A stretch of DNA of 64,000 bases from an uncultured Bacteroidales bacterium (GCA_963749345.1 CAVVMO010000001.1:883336-947335), one strand, 5' to 3'. Shown: positions 54,608 through 64,000, counted from the stretch's first letter. The notes: generated by a model not told the origin, from the sequence alone. Numbers and translations: made by a program.

Positions 54608-55885
54608 ATGAAAAAAAGTTTAACTATTTCTTCTTTTTTGGCAGTAGCCACACTTTTTATGGTGCTCCTCTTTGCAAGCTTTACATTACCTGACTACAAA
54701 AACACAAAAGCCACAACCGGAGGACTGCTAACATTTACTGTAAGAACTGTAACTGATAACGGAACCTATTCCCCAAAACATGTTCTGGCCATTTGGGTCG
54801 AAGACGCCGATGGTTTTGTTAAAACCAGAAAAGCGATGGCCAATCAGCGGAAACAATACCTGTACACATGGAAAGCAGCTTCAAACTATAACGTGGTGGA
54901 TGCAATTACCGGCTCAACACTCACCAGCCACCAAACCCATACTGTTGAATGGAACTGTACAGATCTTTCCGGTAATATTGTACCCGATGGAGATTACACT
55001 GTTTGGGTTGAATTCACAGGTAAGCATGCTCAGGGACCTTTGTACAACATTACCTTTGCCAAAGGGCCTAATGCCCAATCTTTTAGCCCAGCTGACCAAA
55101 CCTATTTTAAAGATATACAGCTCGATTTTATTCCCTATGTTGCTGAATTTACATCCGATGTAACTGATATTTGCCAAAGTGAAATTGTAACGTTTACTGA
55201 TCAGTCAGTCGGTGCAACTTCATGGTCCTGGAATTTTGGTGCAGGTGCATCACCTGCTTCAGCTATTACCATGGGTCCTCATACCGTGATATATTCAACA
55301 CCTGGTCCTAAATCAGTAAGTTTAACAATTAATAGTTCCGTTACTGAAACAAAACAAAACATGATTACAGTTAATGCTTCACCAACCGCCGAGTTCAGCT
55401 TTTCCGGAATTGAATATACAGTAGAATTTCTGAATGGTTCCGTAAATGCAACTTCATATTTATGGGATTTTGGAGATGGAAATACAAGTACTGAAAATAA
55501 TCCATCTCACACCTATGCCAGCGCTGGCACTTATATAGTTTCGCTTACTGCCACCTATATGGATTGCAATGATCTTATAACTCATGAAGTTTCGCTACCC
55601 ATGGTTGGGTTCAACAATCAATTGATTAACAATAATGAAGCAGTTTCAATATTTCCTAATCCTTCAGCTGGATTAATAAGCATAAGAATGAATGAACAAG
55701 CCCCTGGAACTGTTTCAGTAACTGTTTTTAATACTTTAGGGAAGATTATTCATGAATCAACCACTTCAAACCTGACAGTAAATCACACCATAAATCTTGA
55801 TCTGTCAAATCAGCCTAAAGGAATCTACTACATAAAAATTGGAAGCAACAACCTGAAAGCGAATAAGAAAATCATGCTTTATTAA
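54608..55885 (+). CDS. DUF2271 plus PKD domain protein with T9SS type A CTD
   Basis: HVLAIWVEDADGFVKT...DAITGST (DUF2271-like); WSWNFG and YLWDFGDG..STENNPSHTY (PKD); IFPNPS...GIYYIKI...KKIMLY. Confidence 0.82.
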   Translation: MKKSLTISSFLAVATLFMVLLFASFTLPDYKNTKATTGGLLTFTVRTVTDNGTYSPKHVLAIWVEDADGFVKTRKAMANQRKQYLYTWKAASNYNVVDAITGSTLTSHQTHTVEWNCTDLSGNIVPDGDYTVWVEFTGKHAQGPLYNITFAKGPNAQSFSPADQTYFKDIQLDFIPYVAEFTSDVTDICQSEIVTFTDQSVGATSWSWNFGAGASPASAITMGPHTVIYSTPGPKSVSLTINSSVTETKQNMITVNASPTAEFSFSGIEYTVEFLNGSVNATSYLWDFGDGNTSTENNPSHTYASAGTYIVSLTATYMDCNDLITHEVSLPMVGFNNQLINNNEAVSIFPNPSAGLISIRMNEQAPGTVSVTVFNTLGKIIHESTTSNLTVNHTINLDLSNQPKGIYYIKIGSNNLKANKKIMLY

Positions 55886-56366
55886 GCAGGAATTACTTTA
55901 AAGGCAACAAATTTTCATCCGCTATATTTAATGACGCTTCCCTTTGTCAATGTCAAAGTTCGGGATACCCTGACTCAATTGTAACATTCTGGTATTTGGC
56001 ATTTATCTTTTATTAAACTTAAAGACCCTCAATTTTCCAGATGTGCCTAAAACAAAAAGGTATATGCGGGGTACAACCTGTTATGAATTTCCAAGGATAC
56101 GAAGCTTATTGATTACTCCTAAATCTCCAAATTAGCATTCTCCTAAAATTGGGATTAATTTATTTGTTTTAAAGTCAATTAAATAATTTAAGTCTTCAAT
56201 TTGTCCTTCTATTCAATAGACCCGATTTATTCCTAAAAAAATTGGACATATGGAGCTCAATGCTAGTATAACCAAAAGGTCTTTACGGAAAGGTTATGCA
56301 TTTCTATTTTAACTTTTTTTCTTTCAAAGGAAACTAATCGTCAAATAAAATTAAATCCTGGTGATT

Positions 56367-56386
56367 AATTCAACAGTTGTTGAATT
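56367..56386. promoter_or_regulatory. Perfect 8-4-8 palindrome, candidate activator binding site
   Basis: aattcaac-agtt-gttgaatt about 155 nt upstream of the putative -24/-12 element. Confidence 0.4.
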
Positions 56387-56539
56387 TGTTTACAGCATCA
56401 TTAAAAACTTGTTTTACTGATCTATACATAATGTTTATGCCAATAGTGTTTAATTTTTAAACACCATAGTGTGAATGAATTTTAAACATCTCTTTTGTTA
56501 TAATATTGAATATAATATAGTTATAACTGATTTATAGCT

Positions 56540-56556
56540 TTGGTATCAAAGTTGAA
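56540..56556 (+). promoter_or_regulatory. Putative sigma-54 (-24/-12) promoter
   Basis: TTGGTATCAAAGTTGAA: GG-N10-GA versus consensus TGGCAC-N5-TTGC; a sigma-54 activator is encoded at the end of the same gene run. Confidence 0.45.
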
Positions 56557-56621
56557 ATACCTTTAAAAATATAAGTTAATTATATATGATTTTTTTTACA
56601 ACTATTTTAAAACTAAATATT

Positions 56622-58334
56622 ATGAAAAATACATTTCTTCTTTTCGTAAGTTTTTTACTCCTTTATTCAAGTTTTGCAATTAGTAAAGAAGTATTGAAAA
56701 AAGACAATACAGTCAAGGATAATACAATAACTATTTTGTGTTCTCCCGATTTGTATGATCTCACAAAGCAATGGACAAGCGCCTATTGCAAGTTTAATCC
56801 CAGCACTGAAATTAACTTAATTACCGCCAATCCTGATGCGTTGGGCAGCAAGTTTAACACTGGTGTAAATTTAGGTTTTATTTCAAATCGATATTATCCA
56901 TCGATTGAAAGTGTAAGCAATTCGCTATGGGTAGTGGTGATTGGTCGGGATATCATTGTTCCGATTATTAATTCTAAAAATCCATTTATCGATAAAATCA
57001 ATCAACAGGGTATTTCATCCTTTGAGTTGGCTGAAATATTTGAAAACCCACAAACGCAGAACTGGAGGTCACTCATTGAAAACGGGGAAAATGCTCCTTT
57101 GAATTACTATTTGATAGCAAATGAATCAGTAAAATCAGATGTGGCAAATTTCATGAATGTAAATCAAATAAATATTAAGGGAATAGAAGTAAATATTGGT
57201 AAAGAACTTGTCACTGCTGTTCAAAATGATCCTTACGCGATAGGTTTTTGTAAATTAACCGATATTATTAATTCCGGCAATCAGGATTTTGTTGACAATA
57301 TAAAGTTGCTGCCAATCGATAAAAACGGGAACGGGCAAATTGATTACTTTGAAAAAATATATGATAATCTGAATGATTTCTCCAGAGGTGTTTGGATAGG
57401 GAAATACCCTAAAACATTGATATGTGAGTTATATTCAGTCTCCAATGGCATTCCGAAAAATGAAACGGAAGTGGCATTTTTGAAATGGGTGCTCACCGAA
57501 GGTCAGCAAATAGTGGTAAATAATGGTTTTAGCGAACTGGTATATAATGAAAGGCAAACGAAGTTGGAAAAGCTAAATGATCATAAGATTTATGCTGAAA
57601 CCACAAAGGATCAATATGCCTTGAAAAACATACTATTTCTTATTTTTATTGTATTCATGGTATTCCTGGCAGGCGGGTTATTTGTTAACGTTATAGTCCG
57701 GAAAAGAAGGAATAATATTAAGACTCAAAATAAAGGCTTATCCAATCATCCTAAAGTGATCAATGAAAATTCTTTGACTGTTCCCAATGGATTGTACTTC
57801 GATAAAACACATACATGGGTTTTTATGGAAAAAGATGGAATTGTCAAAGTAGGTATTGATGATTTCCTGCAGCATATCACTGGACCCTATTCGCATCTGA
57901 AAATGAAAAATCCTGGTGACAAGATAAAAAAGAATGAGCAGATATTGTCTCTTATTCAAAACGGTAAACATTTAAATATATATGCAGCGATTTCAGGAAC
58001 GATAATAGATATAAATGAACATTTGATTACTGATCCTTCAATAATCAACCGCTCCCCTTATGCTGAAGGTTGGGTTTACATGATTGAACCATCCAACTGG
58101 TTACGTGAAATCCAGTTCTTACGAATGGCAGAGAGATACAAAGAATGGATACAAAATGAATTTTCAAAGTTAAAGGATTTTCTTGCTGTTTCGGTGCATA
58201 CCAAAACCGCCGGATATGCCCACGTTACGTTTCAGGAGGGTGGGGAACTTAAAGATAATGTACTACAGGATTTTGGACCTGAAGTCTGGGAAGATTTTCA
58301 AAAAAATTTCATTGATACTGCCGGATTAAGGTGA
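56622..58334 (+). CDS. PstS-like periplasmic binding domain, TM helix and GcvH-like domain fusion
   Basis: Signal peptide; IGRDIIVPIINSKNP...ELAEIF (PBP-like); TM ILFLIFIVFMVFLAGGLFVNVIV; FDKTHTWV...VKVGIDDF...ISG...N..L..DP.IIN.SPY.EGW (H-protein fold). Alternative start at 56586. Confidence 0.8.
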   Translation: MKNTFLLFVSFLLLYSSFAISKEVLKKDNTVKDNTITILCSPDLYDLTKQWTSAYCKFNPSTEINLITANPDALGSKFNTGVNLGFISNRYYPSIESVSNSLWVVVIGRDIIVPIINSKNPFIDKINQQGISSFELAEIFENPQTQNWRSLIENGENAPLNYYLIANESVKSDVANFMNVNQINIKGIEVNIGKELVTAVQNDPYAIGFCKLTDIINSGNQDFVDNIKLLPIDKNGNGQIDYFEKIYDNLNDFSRGVWIGKYPKTLICELYSVSNGIPKNETEVAFLKWVLTEGQQIVVNNGFSELVYNERQTKLEKLNDHKIYAETTKDQYALKNILFLIFIVFMVFLAGGLFVNVIVRKRRNNIKTQNKGLSNHPKVINENSLTVPNGLYFDKTHTWVFMEKDGIVKVGIDDFLQHITGPYSHLKMKNPGDKIKKNEQILSLIQNGKHLNIYAAISGTIIDINEHLITDPSIINRSPYAEGWVYMIEPSNWLREIQFLRMAERYKEWIQNEFSKLKDFLAVSVHTKTAGYAHVTFQEGGELKDNVLQDFGPEVWEDFQKNFIDTAGLR

Positions 58335-58374
58335 ATTTGTCAATAGCTTTCTCTAACAATCAAAATTAGCAGTT

Positions 58375-59238
58375 ATGAGGATAGATAGAAGAAACTTTTT
58401 CAGGGTGCTTGGTTTAACAGGGGCATCACTGGCTATTGGAAGAGAATTGAACGCAGCACCAATAAATGAAAATGAAATTGAATTCAATGGTATTCTATAT
58501 GATTCGACCCGTTGTGTTGGATGCCAGAGTTGCGAATATGCCTGCGCAAAAGCCAACGGTTTGCCGGAACCTACCGATTCACCGGAAATTGGTATGTTGC
58601 GCAAAACTAATGAATCAAGACGATCTGTAATTAACGGTTATAATACTTCGAAGGGCGAAGTTTATGTCAAACGCCAGTGTATGCAATGTAACGAACCGGC
58701 TTGCACTGCGGCTTGCCTGACACAGGCGATGCTTAAAACCAAAGAAGGGCCGGTTATTTGGAGGGGTGAAAAATGCATGGGTTGTCGTTATTGCATGGTT
58801 TCCTGCCCTTTTGATATTCCGAAATTTGAGTATTTCAGTTCGAATCCAAAGATTACAAAGTGCGATATGTGTCATGACCGTCTGCTGGAAGGCAAAATGC
58901 CTGCCTGTGTTGAAAATTGCGAGACAGAAGCACTTGTATTTGGAACGCGATGGGAACTAATCAAAGAGGCACGCAAACGTATTCAGGAAAATCCGGAATT
59001 CTATGTGGATCAAATTTATGGTGAAAAAGAAGCTGGTGGTACTGGATTCCTTTACCTTTCGCCTGTTCCATTTGATGAATTAGGCTTCAGTACAAAAATC
59101 CAAAAGACTTCATACCCCGAATTGTCAAAAGGATTTCTTTATAGTGTCCCGACCATATTTGTTCTTTGGCCGGCAATTTTACTAGGAATTCAGGAAGCCA
59201 CCAAAAATAACCATCATAACGAAGAGGAAAATGAATGA
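58375..59238 (+). CDS. HybA/HmcB-like Tat-exported 4x[4Fe-4S] protein
   Basis: RRNFF Tat motif; CVGCQSCEYAC, CMQCNEPAC...C, CMGCRYCMVSC, CDMC...PACVENC; C-terminal TM. Confidence 0.9.
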   Translation: MRIDRRNFFRVLGLTGASLAIGRELNAAPINENEIEFNGILYDSTRCVGCQSCEYACAKANGLPEPTDSPEIGMLRKTNESRRSVINGYNTSKGEVYVKRQCMQCNEPACTAACLTQAMLKTKEGPVIWRGEKCMGCRYCMVSCPFDIPKFEYFSSNPKITKCDMCHDRLLEGKMPACVENCETEALVFGTRWELIKEARKRIQENPEFYVDQIYGEKEAGGTGFLYLSPVPFDELGFSTKIQKTSYPELSKGFLYSVPTIFVLWPAILLGIQEATKNNHHNEEENE

Positions 59239-60463
59239 TATAATTAGTTATACAATAGCAAAAGGCCACGAAAGTATAAACTTATGGAAGTTTTTACTCA
59301 ACGAATTGAAACCAAAGGGTAAAATATTTACCCCATTCAACATCATTTCTCTACCCATCATACTGTTAGGCCTGGTGCTTATTGTTATCCGGTTCTGGAA
59401 AGGAATCGGATCAATAACAAATCTAACTCAGGAAGTTCCCTGGGGATTGTGGATTGGGTTTGATGTGGTAACAGGCGTTGCATTTGCAGGTGGGGCTTAT
59501 GTGATCACTTTTATGGTGTATATTCTGAATATGCAGAAATATCATTCCATTGTCAGGGTTACAGTATTGAATGGATTTCTGGCTTATGCATTTTATGCGG
59601 GCGCACTATTACTCGACCTTGGACGTCCCTGGAATGTGATCAATCCGATCATCGGTAACAGCTTTGGCACAAGCTCGGTGCTGTTCCTTGTTGCCTGGCA
59701 CTTCCTGCTGTACATGATTGCACAGTTAATTGAATTTTCACCTGCTATAGCAGAATGGCTTGGTGCCCGTCGTGCCCGAAAGATCCTTTCAAGCATGACC
59801 CTTGCAGCGGTCATTTTTGGTATCACTTTATCCACTCTGCATCAATCGGGATTGGGGGCTCTCTATCTTATGGCAAAAGACAAAATTCATCCGCTTTGGT
59901 ATTCAGAATTCATTCCCATCCTATTTTTTGTATCAAGCATCTTTGCCGGGCTCTCTATGGTTATCTTTGAGGGATCTATCAGCCGAAAAGTATTTTTTGA
60001 TCAGATCAGCGAAAGAAACCATCGTTCACATAATGGCATCATCCGTGGTTTATCAAAAATCTGTGCCGGAGCGATGTTTGCTTACTTTTTTCTTCAAATC
60101 CTCGTTTTTGTGCATGGCAAACAATGGAACTTGTTAAATACCCCGATGGGTTACTGGTACCTTACGGAGATGGTTGGGTTCGTGCTTCTCCCGATGATGC
60201 TTTTCTTTTTTAGTTACCGGAGGAATAATATTTTATTGATAAAAGTTGCATCCATCATCACCATGGTCGGAATCATTATAAACAGGTTAAATGTTACTGT
60301 AATTGGGTTCAGATGGGATGCGGCGACACACTATTTTCCATCGTGGATGGAAATTGTTGTCACTATGTCGGTTATATTCACAGAAATATGGATATTCAGG
60401 TGGGTAATTAATCGCATGCCTGTTTTACGTGAATCGCCAAAATGGATTAAAGATATAAAATAA
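59231..60463 (+). CDS. HybB/HmcC-like NrfD-family integral membrane subunit
   Basis: PWGLWIGFDVVTGVAFAGGAY, DLGRPW, STLHQSGLG, about 10 TM helices; overlaps the HybA-like gene. Confidence 0.9.
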   Translation: MNDIISYTIAKGHESINLWKFLLNELKPKGKIFTPFNIISLPIILLGLVLIVIRFWKGIGSITNLTQEVPWGLWIGFDVVTGVAFAGGAYVITFMVYILNMQKYHSIVRVTVLNGFLAYAFYAGALLLDLGRPWNVINPIIGNSFGTSSVLFLVAWHFLLYMIAQLIEFSPAIAEWLGARRARKILSSMTLAAVIFGITLSTLHQSGLGALYLMAKDKIHPLWYSEFIPILFFVSSIFAGLSMVIFEGSISRKVFFDQISERNHRSHNGIIRGLSKICAGAMFAYFFLQILVFVHGKQWNLLNTPMGYWYLTEMVGFVLLPMMLFFFSYRRNNILLIKVASIITMVGIIINRLNVTVIGFRWDAATHYFPSWMEIVVTMSVIFTEIWIFRWVINRMPVLRESPKWIKDIK

Positions 60464-60511
60464 ATTAACCTGCTTTCATTGTTAACAATGTATGGCATAA
60501 AACATAATTAA

Positions 60512-61222
60512 ATGGACGGATTTATTTATACTGACATTTTTGAGACAAAAGGAATTGAATATTTGATCATTATCTCATTCCTTGTCATCCTGATCCTGTT
60601 CTGGATCATCCTCAATAAACAAACAGAAGTGACAAATCGAATTCACAAAGCGATGGGTGCACTTACAGCCAGTATTTTAAGAATTCCGCATGGACTGTTC
60701 TACAGTAAAAATCACACATGGGCACACTTAGAAAAATCAGGCAATGCAAAAGTAGGACTGGATGACTTTTTGCTCCAAATTGTTGGGGATGTAAAAGTCA
60801 ACCCTCTTAAATTTCCCGGTGAAAAACTCAGAAAGAATGAGATCCTTGCAGAAATTTATCAAAATGGTAAACGGCTTAGAATAATTTCTCCTATATCAGG
60901 TGAAGTTGTCAGCACAAATACCTTGATCAGGGATAATCCTGAACTGCTGCATGATGATCCTTACGGAAAGGGCTGGATTTATGCCATAAAACCGTCAAAC
61001 TGGAAGGAAGATATTCATTCGTATTACCTGGCAGAGGAAGCAACGCATTGGATAACAAAAGATCTGGACCGATTTAAGGATTTTTTGGCCATATCGATTG
61101 GAAAATATTCCACCGAACCATCGATGATTGCGCTCCAAGAAGGAGGTGAACTTCGTCGGAACATCCTTTCAGAATTAGATCATGAAATATGGAATGAATT
61201 TCAGGAATCATTTTTAGACTAA
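60512..61222 (+). CDS. Membrane-anchored GcvH-like protein
   Basis: N-terminal TM (EYLIIISFLVILILFWIIL); NHTWA...KVGLDDF...SPISGEVV..N...DNPELLHDDPYGKGWIY. Confidence 0.85.
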   Translation: MDGFIYTDIFETKGIEYLIIISFLVILILFWIILNKQTEVTNRIHKAMGALTASILRIPHGLFYSKNHTWAHLEKSGNAKVGLDDFLLQIVGDVKVNPLKFPGEKLRKNEILAEIYQNGKRLRIISPISGEVVSTNTLIRDNPELLHDDPYGKGWIYAIKPSNWKEDIHSYYLAEEATHWITKDLDRFKDFLAISIGKYSTEPSMIALQEGGELRRNILSELDHEIWNEFQESFLD

Positions 61223-61331
61223 TTTAGACTTGCATAAATTTTAGTACCCTATCGTAGTAATTTTTATTATCTTGCGGTCATATAAATCGGTCAGTTATTT
61301 TACATTGATCGATTAAAAAAAATGAGGTTAT

Positions 61332-63005
61332 ATGGCGCTTATTAATAAATCAGGATTCCAAAAAAGCAGAGGATATAAGTTTTACGAAAAGTATTTAAGA
61401 TTCCGGTCTTCGATCTATAGCCGGGTTATATTTATCATTACCATATTGTCGGTATTCTTGTTTGTATCCTTTGGGTTAATTTTCAGATCCGTATACGAAG
61501 ATTACCTGAACACTGTCATCCGCCAAAGTGGAAATAACATCGGATCCATCGTGGAGGGAGCATTATATTATTCCATGCTCCAAAACGATAAAAGCTCGCT
61601 GCAAAGCACACTTGATATCATCAATACCATGCCGGGTATTGATGAAGTTAATATGTACAATAATCAGGATAGCCTTGTATATTCATCCTTCTCTTTCGAC
61701 ACAACCACCGAGAGCAATCCCAATTGCAAAAGTTGCCACGAGGATATTAAATCAATGTTTCCCGGTAATGAAAAATCATACAAGATTATTGACAAGGCCA
61801 GTGCTTGTTTAATGAGTCAGAACGAAAATGGTCACAGACAATTGTTAATACGGTCCCCAATATACAATGAAAGATCCTGTTACCTGAGTTCCTGTCATGC
61901 GCATCAGCAATCAGATGTTGAGCTCGGATCTCTGATTATCAAAGTTCCATTGCAAGACCTTGATGTGGCGGTTATAAAATCTTCCCGGGATTTTTTTCTG
62001 TTTGCTACAATTACCACCATCTTACTTGTTTCCTTTTTAATATTTTTTACGAGAAAAAAAATTAAAAACCCACTCAAGGCTATTATCAAAGCAAGCGAAG
62101 CTGTAGCTAGGGGTGACAAAAGTATGCGACTGGAAATTACACCCTACCTTTTAGATGACATGAGGATGGTTTCCATTGCCTTCAATAATATGCTCGATAA
62201 TCTTAATTTAGCAACCAAGGAATTGGAAAACTGGTCGCATCAGCTCGAATACAAGGTCCAAAAAAAATCAGAAGAATTATCCGAAATTCAAAATGAATTA
62301 ATCCATGTGGAGAGAATCGCATCCCTCGGGAAACTCTCTTCATCTGTCGCCCACGAAATAAATAATCCATTATCGGGTGTTTTAACTTATACCAAGTTGG
62401 TTCATAAACAGTTGAACAAACTGGATTTGGATAGTAAAGCAAAAGAATCCATGTTAAAATATCTGACAGTGATTGAAACAGAAACCAAGCGGTGTGGTGA
62501 CATTGTTAAAGGATTGCTCGATTTTTCAAGAAAAGACCAGGAGAATTTTGAGAATAAACAATTGCATAAAATATTAAAGGATACTTATGATTTGATGGCA
62601 CACCAGATGAAAATGGCAAATATTAACTTTTATACCGATTTTTCAGCCCTTTCGGATTTAATATATTGCAGTGAAAATCAAATAAAACAGGCTTGTGTTG
62701 CCATTTTGGTAAATGCTTCTGAAGCGGTTCCGGAGAATGGGGAAATTCTGATAAAAACAATGAATCCTGACGAGGATCATATAAGGCTCGAAATTACTGA
62801 TGACGGTGTGGGCATCGCACCTGAAGATATGCCCCATATTTTTGAACCATTTTTCTCAGCCAAGCAAAAAGCCAGCGGTATTGGTTTGGGACTGGCCATT
62901 GTTCATGGAATAGTTCAAAGCCACAAAGGCAAATTAGAAATAAAATCCGAGCCTGGAAAGGGAACAACCCTTGCCATAATTTTACCATTGGTCAAGAAAC
63001 AATAA
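61332..63005 (+). CDS. Sensor histidine kinase with periplasmic CxxCH, HAMP, HisKA and HATPase domains
   Basis: Two TMs; CKSCH and CYLSSCH between them; VAHEINNPL; NQIKQ...LVNASEA; DDGVGI; FEPFFS; GIGLGL. Confidence 0.92.
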   Translation: MALINKSGFQKSRGYKFYEKYLRFRSSIYSRVIFIITILSVFLFVSFGLIFRSVYEDYLNTVIRQSGNNIGSIVEGALYYSMLQNDKSSLQSTLDIINTMPGIDEVNMYNNQDSLVYSSFSFDTTTESNPNCKSCHEDIKSMFPGNEKSYKIIDKASACLMSQNENGHRQLLIRSPIYNERSCYLSSCHAHQQSDVELGSLIIKVPLQDLDVAVIKSSRDFFLFATITTILLVSFLIFFTRKKIKNPLKAIIKASEAVARGDKSMRLEITPYLLDDMRMVSIAFNNMLDNLNLATKELENWSHQLEYKVQKKSEELSEIQNELIHVERIASLGKLSSSVAHEINNPLSGVLTYTKLVHKQLNKLDLDSKAKESMLKYLTVIETETKRCGDIVKGLLDFSRKDQENFENKQLHKILKDTYDLMAHQMKMANINFYTDFSALSDLIYCSENQIKQACVAILVNASEAVPENGEILIKTMNPDEDHIRLEITDDGVGIAPEDMPHIFEPFFSAKQKASGIGLGLAIVHGIVQSHKGKLEIKSEPGKGTTLAIILPLVKKQ

Positions 63006-63012
63006 AAAAATA

Positions 63013-64000
63013 ATGATAAAAAAAATTTCACTGTTGATCGTTGACGATGAAGAATCGGTAAGAGATTCTTTATACAACTGGTTCATCGAAGATGGCTATA
63101 ATGTTGATGGTGCCGAAAATGCCAAGGAGGCCTTATCAATGCTTGAATCAAAAAATTATGACATTATCCTGGCTGATATCAAAATGCCCGGAATGGACGG
63201 GCTTGAGATGCACAGAAGAATCAAATCCCTGAATAAGGATTCCATTGTCATTGTTATGACCGCATTTGCGTCTGTTGAAACGGCAGTTCAGGCATTAAAA
63301 GACGGAGCGTATGATTACGTAACGAAGCCTTTTGACCCGGATGATCTGTCTCATTTAATTCGCAATGCAGCAAGCCAGATAACCCTTAAAGCTGAAAATG
63401 AGGCCCTGAAAAACAAAATCATCTCCCTTGAAAACATTGAAGATATTATCGGGAACAGCGATGCCATGATGAAGGTTCTCAAGGAAGTTGAGAGTGTCGC
63501 CCAATCGAATTCATCGGTGATCATCACCGGTGAAAGCGGCACGGGGAAAGAGCTTATCGCCAGGGCTATTCATTCCAATTCCCCGCGTAAATATTTTCCC
63601 ATGGTGAGTGTACATTGCGGGGCTTTATCAGAAAGTTTGCTGGAAAGTGAGTTATTCGGACATGAAAAAGGGGCATTTACCGGTGCTATGTTTAACCGTA
63701 AAGGAAGATTTGAAATGGCTGATGGTGGTACTATATTTCTAGATGAAATAGCTACTATTTCTGCAAAAATGCAAATTGAATTGTTGAGAGTATTGGAATC
63801 AAAAACTTTTATGCGTGTAGGAGGCAATAAGGAAATTAAATCAGATTTCAGGGTTATTTGCGCCACCAACAGGGATTTAAAAAAACTGGTTGAATCCGGC
63901 ACTTTTCGCGAAGACCTATATTACAGGCTGAATGTTGTGAATATTAAAATTCCTCCCCTTCGTGAGAGACCTGAGGATATTCCCCAGCTTGTTGATCACT
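63013..64000 (+). CDS. Sigma-54-dependent (NtrC/AtoC-type) response regulator, 3'-truncated by the window edge
   Basis: Not in the ORF track. MIKKISLLIVDDEE, ADIKMPGMDG, TGESGTGKELIARAIH, ESELFGHEKGAFTGA, FREDLYYRLNV. Confidence 0.93.
   Translation, partial: MIKKISLLIVDDEESVRDSLYNWFIEDGYNVDGAENAKEALSMLESKNYDIILADIKMPGMDGLEMHRRIKSLNKDSIVIVMTAFASVETAVQALKDGAYDYVTKPFDPDDLSHLIRNAASQITLKAENEALKNKIISLENIEDIIGNSDAMMKVLKEVESVAQSNSSVIITGESGTGKELIARAIHSNSPRKYFPMVSVHCGALSESLLESELFGHEKGAFTGAMFNRKGRFEMADGGTIFLDEIATISAKMQIELLRVLESKTFMRVGGNKEIKSDFRVICATNRDLKKLVESGTFREDLYYRLNVVNIKIPPLRERPEDIPQLVDH

Follow-up and report, generated by a model that had tools for sequence, protein, structure and literature searches.

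Glycine in place of the lipoyl-lysine in two membrane-tethered H-protein-fold domains of a conserved Bacteroidota gene cluster

Two membrane proteins encoded in a 64,000-nucleotide (nt) stretch of DNA from an uncultured Bacteroidales bacterium (GCA_963749345.1, CAVVMO010000001.1:883336-947335; the whole stretch is called the window, and positions are counted from its first letter) carry a domain with the fold of GcvH, the H protein of the glycine cleavage system, in which glycine stands where GcvH has its lipoyl-lysine. The two open reading frames (ORFs), both on the + strand, are ORF1 (56586..58334, 582 amino acids (aa)), which joins a PstS/ModA-type domain, a transmembrane segment, an H-protein-fold domain and a C-terminal extension, and ORF4 (60512..61222, 236 aa), which has a transmembrane segment, an H-protein-fold domain and the same kind of extension. 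We consider it probable that both H-fold domains are cofactor-free, non-lipoylated derivatives of GcvH that act in the cytoplasm as membrane-tethered subunits of a module conserved in Bacteroidota.

Hairpin register and conservation

In H proteins the lipoyl-lysine sits in the motif ES[VM]KA, eight residues before the proline of P-x-S-G. An earlier note on this DNA had quoted two equivalent segments, and both are present in the translations, SLIQNGKHLNIYAAISG in ORF1, with Q458-N459-G460-K461 (57957..57968, + strand), and EIYQNGKRLRIISPISG in ORF4, with Q117-N118-G119-K120 (60860..60871, + strand). The Pfam model GCV_H covers the surrounding domains at aa 403-524 of ORF1 (E 3.4e-26) and aa 63-177 of ORF4 (E 1.7e-21). 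In a phmmer search against all PDB sequences, ORF4 aligned without gaps to the GcvH of Thermus (1onl, E 2.5e-17) and of E. coli (3a8i, E 4.1e-15), with ‘yqnGKrlriisPisG’ lying over ‘aesvKaasdiyaPvsG’. When the H domains of ORF1 and ORF4 were aligned with the E. coli and Thermus proteins using MAFFT, the alignment was gap-free over the whole H domain and gave the same register. In both alignments G460 and G119 occupy the column of the lipoyl-lysine (ESVK), and K461 and K120 occupy that of the following alanine (the +1 position), which bears out the claim of the note that position -8 is glycine with a lysine one residue later, at -7.

AlphaFold2 models built on the family alignments were confident over the H domains, with a mean predicted local distance difference test score (pLDDT) of 83.8 for ORF4 (blocks at 90-95; predicted template-modelling score 0.72) and a mean pLDDT of 82.0 for ORF1. 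When the H domains were compared with known structures using Foldseek, GcvH chains, among them 1onl, 3a8k and 3a7l, came first for both: for ORF4 at target template-modelling scores (TMt) of 0.89-0.92 and a root-mean-square deviation (rmsd) of 1.4-1.9 Å, with 125-129 columns on chains of 126-128 residues, and for ORF1 at TMt 0.92-0.95 and rmsd 1.2-1.5 Å. DSSP assigned strands to residues 111-117 and 120-125 of the ORF4 model and to residues 452-458 and 461-466 of the ORF1 model, leaving only N118-G119 and N459-G460 as the turn, and in both models the returning strand begins with the lysine, which faces the conserved glutamine. As modelled, the hairpin tip is a tight two-residue N-G turn with the lysine outside it. 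The structural comparison with E. coli GcvH, which the earlier note had suggested, agrees with the sequence alignments in placing the glycine in the lipoyl-lysine column and the lysine away from the hairpin tip. A one-residue insertion or deletion that would move the lysine onto the tip is ruled out by the gap-free alignments, by the DSSP placement of the strands and by the structural alignments, whose ~126 columns on GcvH chains of 126-128 residues leave no room for such a change in the hairpin.

ORF1 and ORF4 each have ~2,000 relatives at 90% clustering. With positions counted back from the proline of P-x-S-G, the canonical lipoyl-lysine column is never lysine in more than 500 homologues. 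Among ORF4-type proteins, position -8 is glycine in 105/113 and D, N, S or E in the remainder; at position -7 there is lysine in 109/113, arginine in three and asparagine in one, position -10 is glutamine in 103/113, and position -5 is leucine in all 113. ORF4-type genes from GTDB species representatives have lysine at -7 in 72/78 cases and arginine in 6/78, and the arginine-bearing genes retain their full length and every other family motif, most of them in complete clusters. In ORF1-type relatives the glycine and the lysine are each found in 111/111, and the -7 lysine is present in 80/80 species loci. A profile search of 1.84 billion representatives, for which the profile kept the PstS-domain columns, yielded 150 listed matches, every one a full-length ORF1-type protein; in the resulting 136 representatives at 50% clustering the glycine is invariant (136/136), with lysine following it in 134/136 and arginine in 2/136. 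The proline itself is kept in 107/111 ORF1 relatives, and the ORF1 of the window reads YAAISG, a minority variant.

Position -9 varies among polar residues (N, D, K, E, Q), so the shared QNGK turn described in the earlier note holds for its glycine and for the basic residue after it, while QNGK as such is not the conserved unit; the pattern found across the family is [QRH]-x-G-[KR]. A type I' two-residue beta-turn prefers N or D first and glycine second, a preference matched by the usage seen here, in which N, D, K or E is followed by a glycine replaced only by D, N, S or E. In addition, the glutamate of the GcvH motif HEW, which helps hold the loaded lipoamide arm in the plant H protein, is a threonine in this family (T69, at least 90% conserved). 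The paralogy of ORF1 and ORF4 described below, together with strong purifying selection in hundreds of homologues, indicates that the hairpin motif is not a matter of chance. The intact frames, together with conservation and synteny in hundreds of genomes, rule out a pseudogene as well as an artefact of sequencing or annotation.

The occurrence of arginine in place of the +1 lysine (3/113 and 6/78 ORF4-type and 2/136 ORF1-type sequences) in apparently functional genes argues that a positive charge is what is conserved here, not an amine able to form an amide. Mutagenesis of a lipoyl domain (Wallis & Perham 1994) points the same way: according to the passage on that work in PMC6270654, a lysine moved to -1 (D41K/K42A) was not lipoylated and a lysine added at +1 (A43K) gave no extra lipoylation, exact placement at the tip of the turn being crucial. 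A residue adjacent to the tip would point to the opposite face of the hairpin from the tip residue. On the sequence evidence we therefore strongly favor an unmodified state for both H-fold domains.

Membrane topology and gene context

From its N-terminus, ORF1 consists of a signal peptide, a periplasmic domain (~aa 47-331), a transmembrane helix (~aa 348-372), the H-fold domain (aa 403-524) and a helical extension (aa 525-582). Translation probably starts at nt 56622 (M13), as M13-K14 is the start of the signal peptide in at least 90% of ORF1 relatives and the 12 residues encoded from the first ATG (56586-56621) are absent there. Judged by its modelled fold, the periplasmic part is a PstS/ModA-type binding-protein domain, for which Pfam gave a weak PBP_like_2 match and Foldseek gave PstS-like chains at E 1e-15 to 1e-12 and TMt 0.6-0.74. 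Within this PstS-like domain lies an EF-hand-like loop of 12 residues, D-K-N-G-N-G-Q-I-D-Y-F-E (57318-57353, aa 245-256), in which 115 relatives show no change at D245, N249, D253 or E256 and hardly any at N247 or G250, and which could possibly be a Ca2+ site inserted in the binding-protein fold.

ORF4 begins with a conserved short N-terminus, followed by a transmembrane segment (~aa 17-35), the H-fold domain (aa 63-177) and a conserved helical extension (aa 178-236); it contains no cysteine, and no cysteine is conserved in the family alignment. The sequence flanking its transmembrane segment is acidic before and basic after. In ORF1 the stretch RKRRNNIK comes directly after the transmembrane helix, with the signal peptide and the periplasmic binding domain before it, and this basic stretch assigns the H-fold domain to the cytoplasm. 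Both proteins are accordingly predicted from sequence to be single-pass, N-out/C-in membrane proteins with a cytoplasmic H-fold domain. The C-terminal half of ORF1 aligns with ORF4 at 36% identity (E 2e-54) across the transmembrane segment, the H-fold domain and the extension, a similarity that identifies the two as paralogues over all three parts. The helical extension of ~60 aa is common to both paralogues and strongly conserved, and GcvH is without it; its invariant residues in the family alignment are K189, Q209, G211, G212, W227, F230 and F234 (ORF4 numbering), and in the family alignments as a whole the invariant residues cluster in the hairpin and in this extension.

Translation of the window shows that ORF1 belongs to a co-directional array on the + strand. 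It is followed by ORF2 (58375..59238, 287 aa), predicted to encode a periplasmic ferredoxin of the HmcB/HybA/NrfC-like type exported by the twin-arginine translocation (Tat) pathway, ORF3 (59231..60463, 410 aa), encoding an HmcC/HybB-like integral membrane protein of the NrfD family, ORF4, a sensor histidine kinase gene (61332..63005, 557 aa) and a gene for a sigma-54-dependent response regulator with receiver and AAA+ domains (63013..64000), which runs past the end of the window and whose orthologue in a related locus (L001) has 447 aa and the domains Response_reg, Sigma54_activat and HTH_8. The intergenic gaps of the array measure 7-109 nt, ORF3 overlaps ORF2 by 8 nt, and a scan of the + strand gaps found no terminator-like site, which is compatible with a single transcription unit.

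A search of GTDB species representatives returned at least 566 matching stretches. The locus comparisons rest on the best 80 of these, which come almost entirely from Bacteroidota (Bacteroidales, Marinilabiliales, Prolixibacteraceae, Lentimicrobiaceae, Rikenellaceae and Tenuifilaceae). The two H-fold paralogues always occur together, in a cluster that runs from the PstS-like-transmembrane-H-fold gene through the HmcB/HybA-like gene, the HmcC/HybB-like NrfD gene, the transmembrane-H-fold gene and the kinase to the sigma-54 regulator, usually with an archaemetzincin gene as well. This six-gene order is identical in 49 complete loci, one of the genomes with identical order being from the Tenuifilaceae, and most of the other 32 loci are interrupted only by contig ends. 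When the ORFs flanking the cluster in 81 related loci were themselves clustered, the sole recurrent neighbor was the archaemetzincin gene (58 loci), and everything else occurred in seven loci or fewer. No ligase, LipA, LipB, octanoyltransferase, lipoyl synthase or BirA-like/biotin ligase was recurrent among these flanking ORFs, no gcvT or gcvP gene lay beside the cluster in the window or as a recurrent neighbor in the 81 loci, and no catalytic or cytochrome partner gene was a conserved neighbor in them.

The archaemetzincin gene (Peptidase_M54, ~178 aa; 13981-14517 in L001) lies 3' of the sigma-54 regulator on the same strand in 58/81 loci. Its product is archaemetzincin-like, with HExxHxxGxxH and a Cys-rich motif, and the gene is likely to be a seventh member of the cluster. 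Upstream of ORF1, 55886-56585 is a non-coding, AT-rich interval of 700 nt (~31% GC), for which a sigma-70 scan is uninformative in Bacteroidota. The neighbor beyond it (54608-55885) encodes a secreted protein of 425 aa in which inspection by eye suggests PKD-like repeats and, at the C-terminus, a tail similar to a type IX secretion sorting domain, which fits a Bacteroidota origin.

Searches for the sigma-54 promoter TGGCAC-N5-TTGC with up to two mismatches returned 45 matches in the whole window against 47 expected and none in the interval 55886-56585, and a site with at most one mismatch was present upstream of ORF1 in only three of the 80 loci scanned. With no sigma-54 promoter signal, autoregulation by the adjacent regulator is not evident. 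Metagenomes of freshwater sediment, wetland and soil from many studies contain DNA nearly identical to 57880-64000 of the window. In three sediment metatranscriptomes, short contigs of low depth cover parts of ORF1, ORF2, ORF4, the kinase and the regulator; these scattered contigs are compatible with expression in sediment and too thin to define a transcript.

A putative quinone-linked sensory or redox complex

The proteins encoded with the two H-fold paralogues suggest a setting at the respiratory membrane. The ORF2 translation has a twin-arginine signal (DRRNFF), 16 cysteines in four [4Fe-4S] motifs and a C-terminal transmembrane anchor; it matches Pfam Fer4_11 (4Fe-4S dicluster domain, E 3e-19), and its best NCBIfam models are HmcB (314.9 bits, cut-off 420) and HybA (229.4 bits, cut-off 263). 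ORF3 matches Pfam NrfD (E 1.2e-12), with HmcC (408.7 bits, cut-off 550) and HybB (257.7 bits, cut-off 450) as its best NCBIfam models, and is presumed to be the quinone-interacting subunit. In their domain make-up, a Tat-exported protein with four [4Fe-4S] clusters and a C-terminal anchor beside an NrfD-family protein, ORF2 and ORF3 resemble the pairs HmcB/HmcC, HybA/HybB and NrfC/NrfD, in which electrons pass between the iron-sulfur subunit and c-type haem proteins of the periplasm or a hydrogenase. They differ from these systems in falling below every equivalog cut-off and in being accompanied by two H-fold membrane proteins and a two-component system instead. No gene for HmcA, HmcD, HmcE, HmcF, a multihaem cytochrome, an HdrD-like protein, NrfA or NrfB is present in the cluster, and no hydrogenase gene is present in the window region or in L001.

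The kinase has two transmembrane segments around a periplasmic domain, followed by HAMP, HisKA and HATPase domains (Pfam). Its periplasmic domain (aa ~56-220, ~nt 61497-61991) contains C132xxC135H136, C159, C183x4C188H189 and H191, and these cysteine and histidine positions are conserved in 66-67 of 67 orthologues (CxxCH in 66/67). CxxCH and CxxxxCH are spacings of c-type haem attachment, the latter occurring in cytochromes c3. Pfam gave only weak matches to this domain, namely sCache_4 (E 0.13), Mcp40H-20_sensor and Cytochrome_C7 (range E 0.04-0.13), and DUF3365 did not match even at E<=10. From these motifs the domain is probably a c-type sensor with one or two haems. It resembles the haem-c sensors of the sCache_haem/DUF3365 group and the Geobacter haem-PAS chemoreceptors in being a periplasmic sensor with a conserved CxxCH, and differs from sCache_haem/DUF3365 in not matching that model and in having a second, Cx4CH motif, its haem binding being a prediction. 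Extracytoplasmic sensors of the Cache type can carry covalent haem c (PMC12889525, preprint).

Taken together, the module is best read, by analogy with these systems, as a quinone-linked sensory or redox complex with H-fold docking subunits. The strong conservation of the hairpin and the extension indicates that the hairpin remains a functional contact site, and the remodelled hairpin with its basic residue would still be the working end of the domain, serving in protein docking instead of carrying a swinging arm. ORF1 and ORF4 would probably pair as a heterodimer through their shared extension, with the Q-x-G-K/R hairpin probably contacting the cytoplasmic face of the NrfD-like subunit, the kinase or both. 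Proteins of the NrfC and HmcB types pass electrons on to c-haem proteins in the periplasm (NrfB and HmcA, respectively), and the kinase is the only conserved haem-type protein encoded here, which together suggest a model in which ORF2 and ORF3 wire the menaquinone pool to the periplasmic haem or haems of the kinase and so set or reset their redox state. Such wiring could either report the redox state of the pool or hold the haem in a reduced state for sensing a ligand. A second periplasmic input, an oxyanion, may come in through the PstS-like domain of ORF1, and on the cytoplasmic side the H-fold domains may relay the signal or act as its scaffold.

The main rival at the level of the system is a plain respiratory module, in which ORF1-ORF4 would form an ordinary quinone oxidoreductase of the Hmc/Hyb/Nrf type whose periplasmic partner is encoded elsewhere, the H-folds would have an assembly or stabilizing role, as small subunits with one transmembrane segment do in other NrfD complexes, and the kinase and regulator would act only on transcription, with no physical or electronic coupling to the module. 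The nearest relatives of ORF2 and ORF3 are indeed HmcB/HmcC and HybA/HybB, two-component genes beside the operon that they regulate are commonplace, and the gaps without terminator-like sites would suit one transcription unit. Set against this are the 81 loci, where no catalytic or cytochrome partner is a conserved neighbor and where redox-type motifs occur in only one further conserved periplasmic protein, the kinase with its sensor domain. In addition, synteny is just as strict for the kinase and regulator as for the structural genes, and neither the window nor the comparison across loci gave a sigma-54 promoter signal upstream of the operon. We consider this explanation unlikely, while giving it more weight than the two alternatives considered in the following section.

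Cofactor-free domains or a displaced acceptor lysine

By fold and by Pfam the H domains of ORF1 and ORF4 belong to the GcvH superfamily, and they are not GcvH proper. They share with GcvH (PF01597/TIGR00527) the fold, the length of the hairpin and the motifs K-x-H-x-W, G-[IL]-[TD]-D, P-[IV]-S-G-x-[IV]-x-x-x-N and P-Y-x-x-G-W. They differ from it in the glycine that replaces the lipoyl-lysine, the threonine that replaces the HEW glutamate, the membrane anchor and the ~60-aa helical extension, to which ORF1 adds its periplasmic binding-protein domain. Both also lack a gcvT/gcvP context and score below the equivalog cut-offs of TIGR00527 (115.85 bits; ORF1 76.5, ORF4 69.5) and NF002270 (117 bits; ORF1 88.4, ORF4 77.7). 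The models for other GcvH-like families scored lower still, with 42.8 bits for ORF1 and 30.9 for ORF4 under TIGR03077 (not_gcvH, cut-off 144.05) and 34.5 and 40.8 under NF045810 (GcvH_rel_desulf, cut-off 150).

Among GcvH-like families, only LbpA is known to us to have been recruited to another redox system. This GcvH-derived protein of sHdr sulfur oxidation is encoded inside the cluster that it serves, a redox system unrelated to glycine; it is soluble and has a strictly conserved lipoyl-lysine and two conserved cysteines, and dedicated ligase genes lie in its cluster (PMC6067878). ORF1 and ORF4 are like LbpA in being GcvH-derived proteins inside a redox cluster, and unlike it in having no canonical lysine, no cysteine in ORF4, a membrane tether and no neighboring ligase. 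Their cluster is without shdr, ligase or LipS neighbors, its conserved content being the HmcB/HmcC-like pair, the kinase, the regulator and Peptidase_M54 only.

A closer functional parallel may be found in the N-terminal domains of RnfC and NqrA and the lipoyl-like domains of membrane-fusion proteins, which are cofactor-free barrel-sandwich hybrids acting as structural or docking modules. Like the domains described here, they are lipoyl/biotinyl-type beta-sandwiches without a modified lysine that are attached to membrane complexes, and by this analogy ORF1 and ORF4 most likely work as they do. Some homologues show weak matches to PF25917 (BSH_RND), and Foldseek returned RnfC (8rbm_C) at E 0.085. 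These families are distant in sequence, whereas the ORF1 and ORF4 domains clearly fall in the GcvH subfamily (Pfam E 1e-21 to 1e-26). The idea of cofactor-less lipoyl-like domains is already known; literature searches found no paper on this family or its cluster and nothing on a membrane-tethered, Lys-less H-domain pair with an HmcBC-like module and a haem-type sensor kinase.

Several points weigh against cofactor-free docking subunits as the explanation. The +1 lysine is 92-100% conserved, which exceeds the need of a purely structural residue, and it lies beside the tip of a fold that elsewhere presents a modified lysine. The arginine variants come from metagenome-assembled genomes, and the predicted topology turns the H-fold domains toward the cytoplasm, where ligases act. 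Furthermore, haem binding by the kinase is predicted from motifs, with weak Pfam support (E 0.04-0.13), and docking, the heterodimer, the contact with NrfD or kinase and electron transfer to the haem are argued from synteny and analogy.

The first of these points would be accommodated if K461 and K120 were true acceptors of a lipoyl, octanoyl, biotinyl or other acyl group attached by a ligase encoded elsewhere, making the domains membrane-tethered swinging arms for the HmcBC-like module. This explanation, which we regard as improbable, could draw on the lysine being at least 92-100% conserved at its place beside the tip, on the cytoplasmic location shared with ligases, on the other determinants of the GcvH fold being kept, and on LbpA, which shows that specialized ligases can serve GcvH-like proteins while ignoring canonical substrates (PMC6067878). 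It is opposed by the arginine or asparagine found for the lysine in full-length proteins, mostly within complete clusters, and by the lipoyl-domain mutants of the cited passage in PMC6270654, in which a lysine displaced by one residue was not lipoylated, the hairpin neighbor pointing to the opposite face. The conserved neighborhood in the 81 loci offers neither a ligase nor a gene for radical-SAM sulfur insertion, the domain content of the HmcB/HmcC-like pair includes no cytoplasmic redox centre for a dithiol arm, and the HEW glutamate is lost. The earlier note had left two alternatives side by side, a non-lipoylated H-fold or a shifted lysine with a different modification; the glycine turn, the arginine variants, the loss of the HEW glutamate and the lack of a neighboring modifying enzyme favor the former, and we think there is little chance that the shifted lysine (K461 or K120) carries a modification. 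There is a similarly slight prospect that a modified +1 lysine, K461 in the PstS-fused protein and K120 in its short paralogue, gives an NrfD-type quinone module a membrane-tethered swinging arm on the cytoplasmic side; if true, this would be a new carrier chemistry coupled to a haem-based two-component sensor.

It is very improbable that the domains bind a small ligand such as free lipoate, octanoate or a nucleotide non-covalently in the cleft of the lipoamide arm and act as metabolite sensors for the kinase, as the kept fold, the conserved surface around the hairpin and the family-specific extension with its invariant Q-x-G-G could suggest, given that Pfam scans detected no known ligand-binding motif and that no H-protein fold is known to us to sense a ligand non-covalently.

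The reading of the two domains as cofactor-free H-folds bears on how this family is annotated. Database entries for its relatives are labelled ‘glycine cleavage system protein H’, ‘lipoate-binding protein’ or ‘hypothetical’, and in hundreds of Bacteroidota genomes, which come from anoxic sediments, wetlands and reactors, the family carries the GcvH or lipoate-binding label. For this family both of these labels are almost certainly wrong, and the mislabelling inflates the glycine-cleavage and lipoate metabolism inferred from such genomes. The paralogue pair instead marks a strictly syntenic module of six to seven genes that combines a quinone module with a PstS-like domain, a probable haem-c kinase and a sigma-54 activator, and membrane tethering within an HmcBC-like/two-component cluster is more informative than the shift of the hairpin lysine alone. 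If the module is a quinone-wired sensor of redox state, NO or an oxyanion, it would provide a new route from the status of the respiratory chain to transcription, and if the H-fold domains are cofactor-free docking subunits within such a sensor, they would represent a new cofactor-free use of the H-protein fold.

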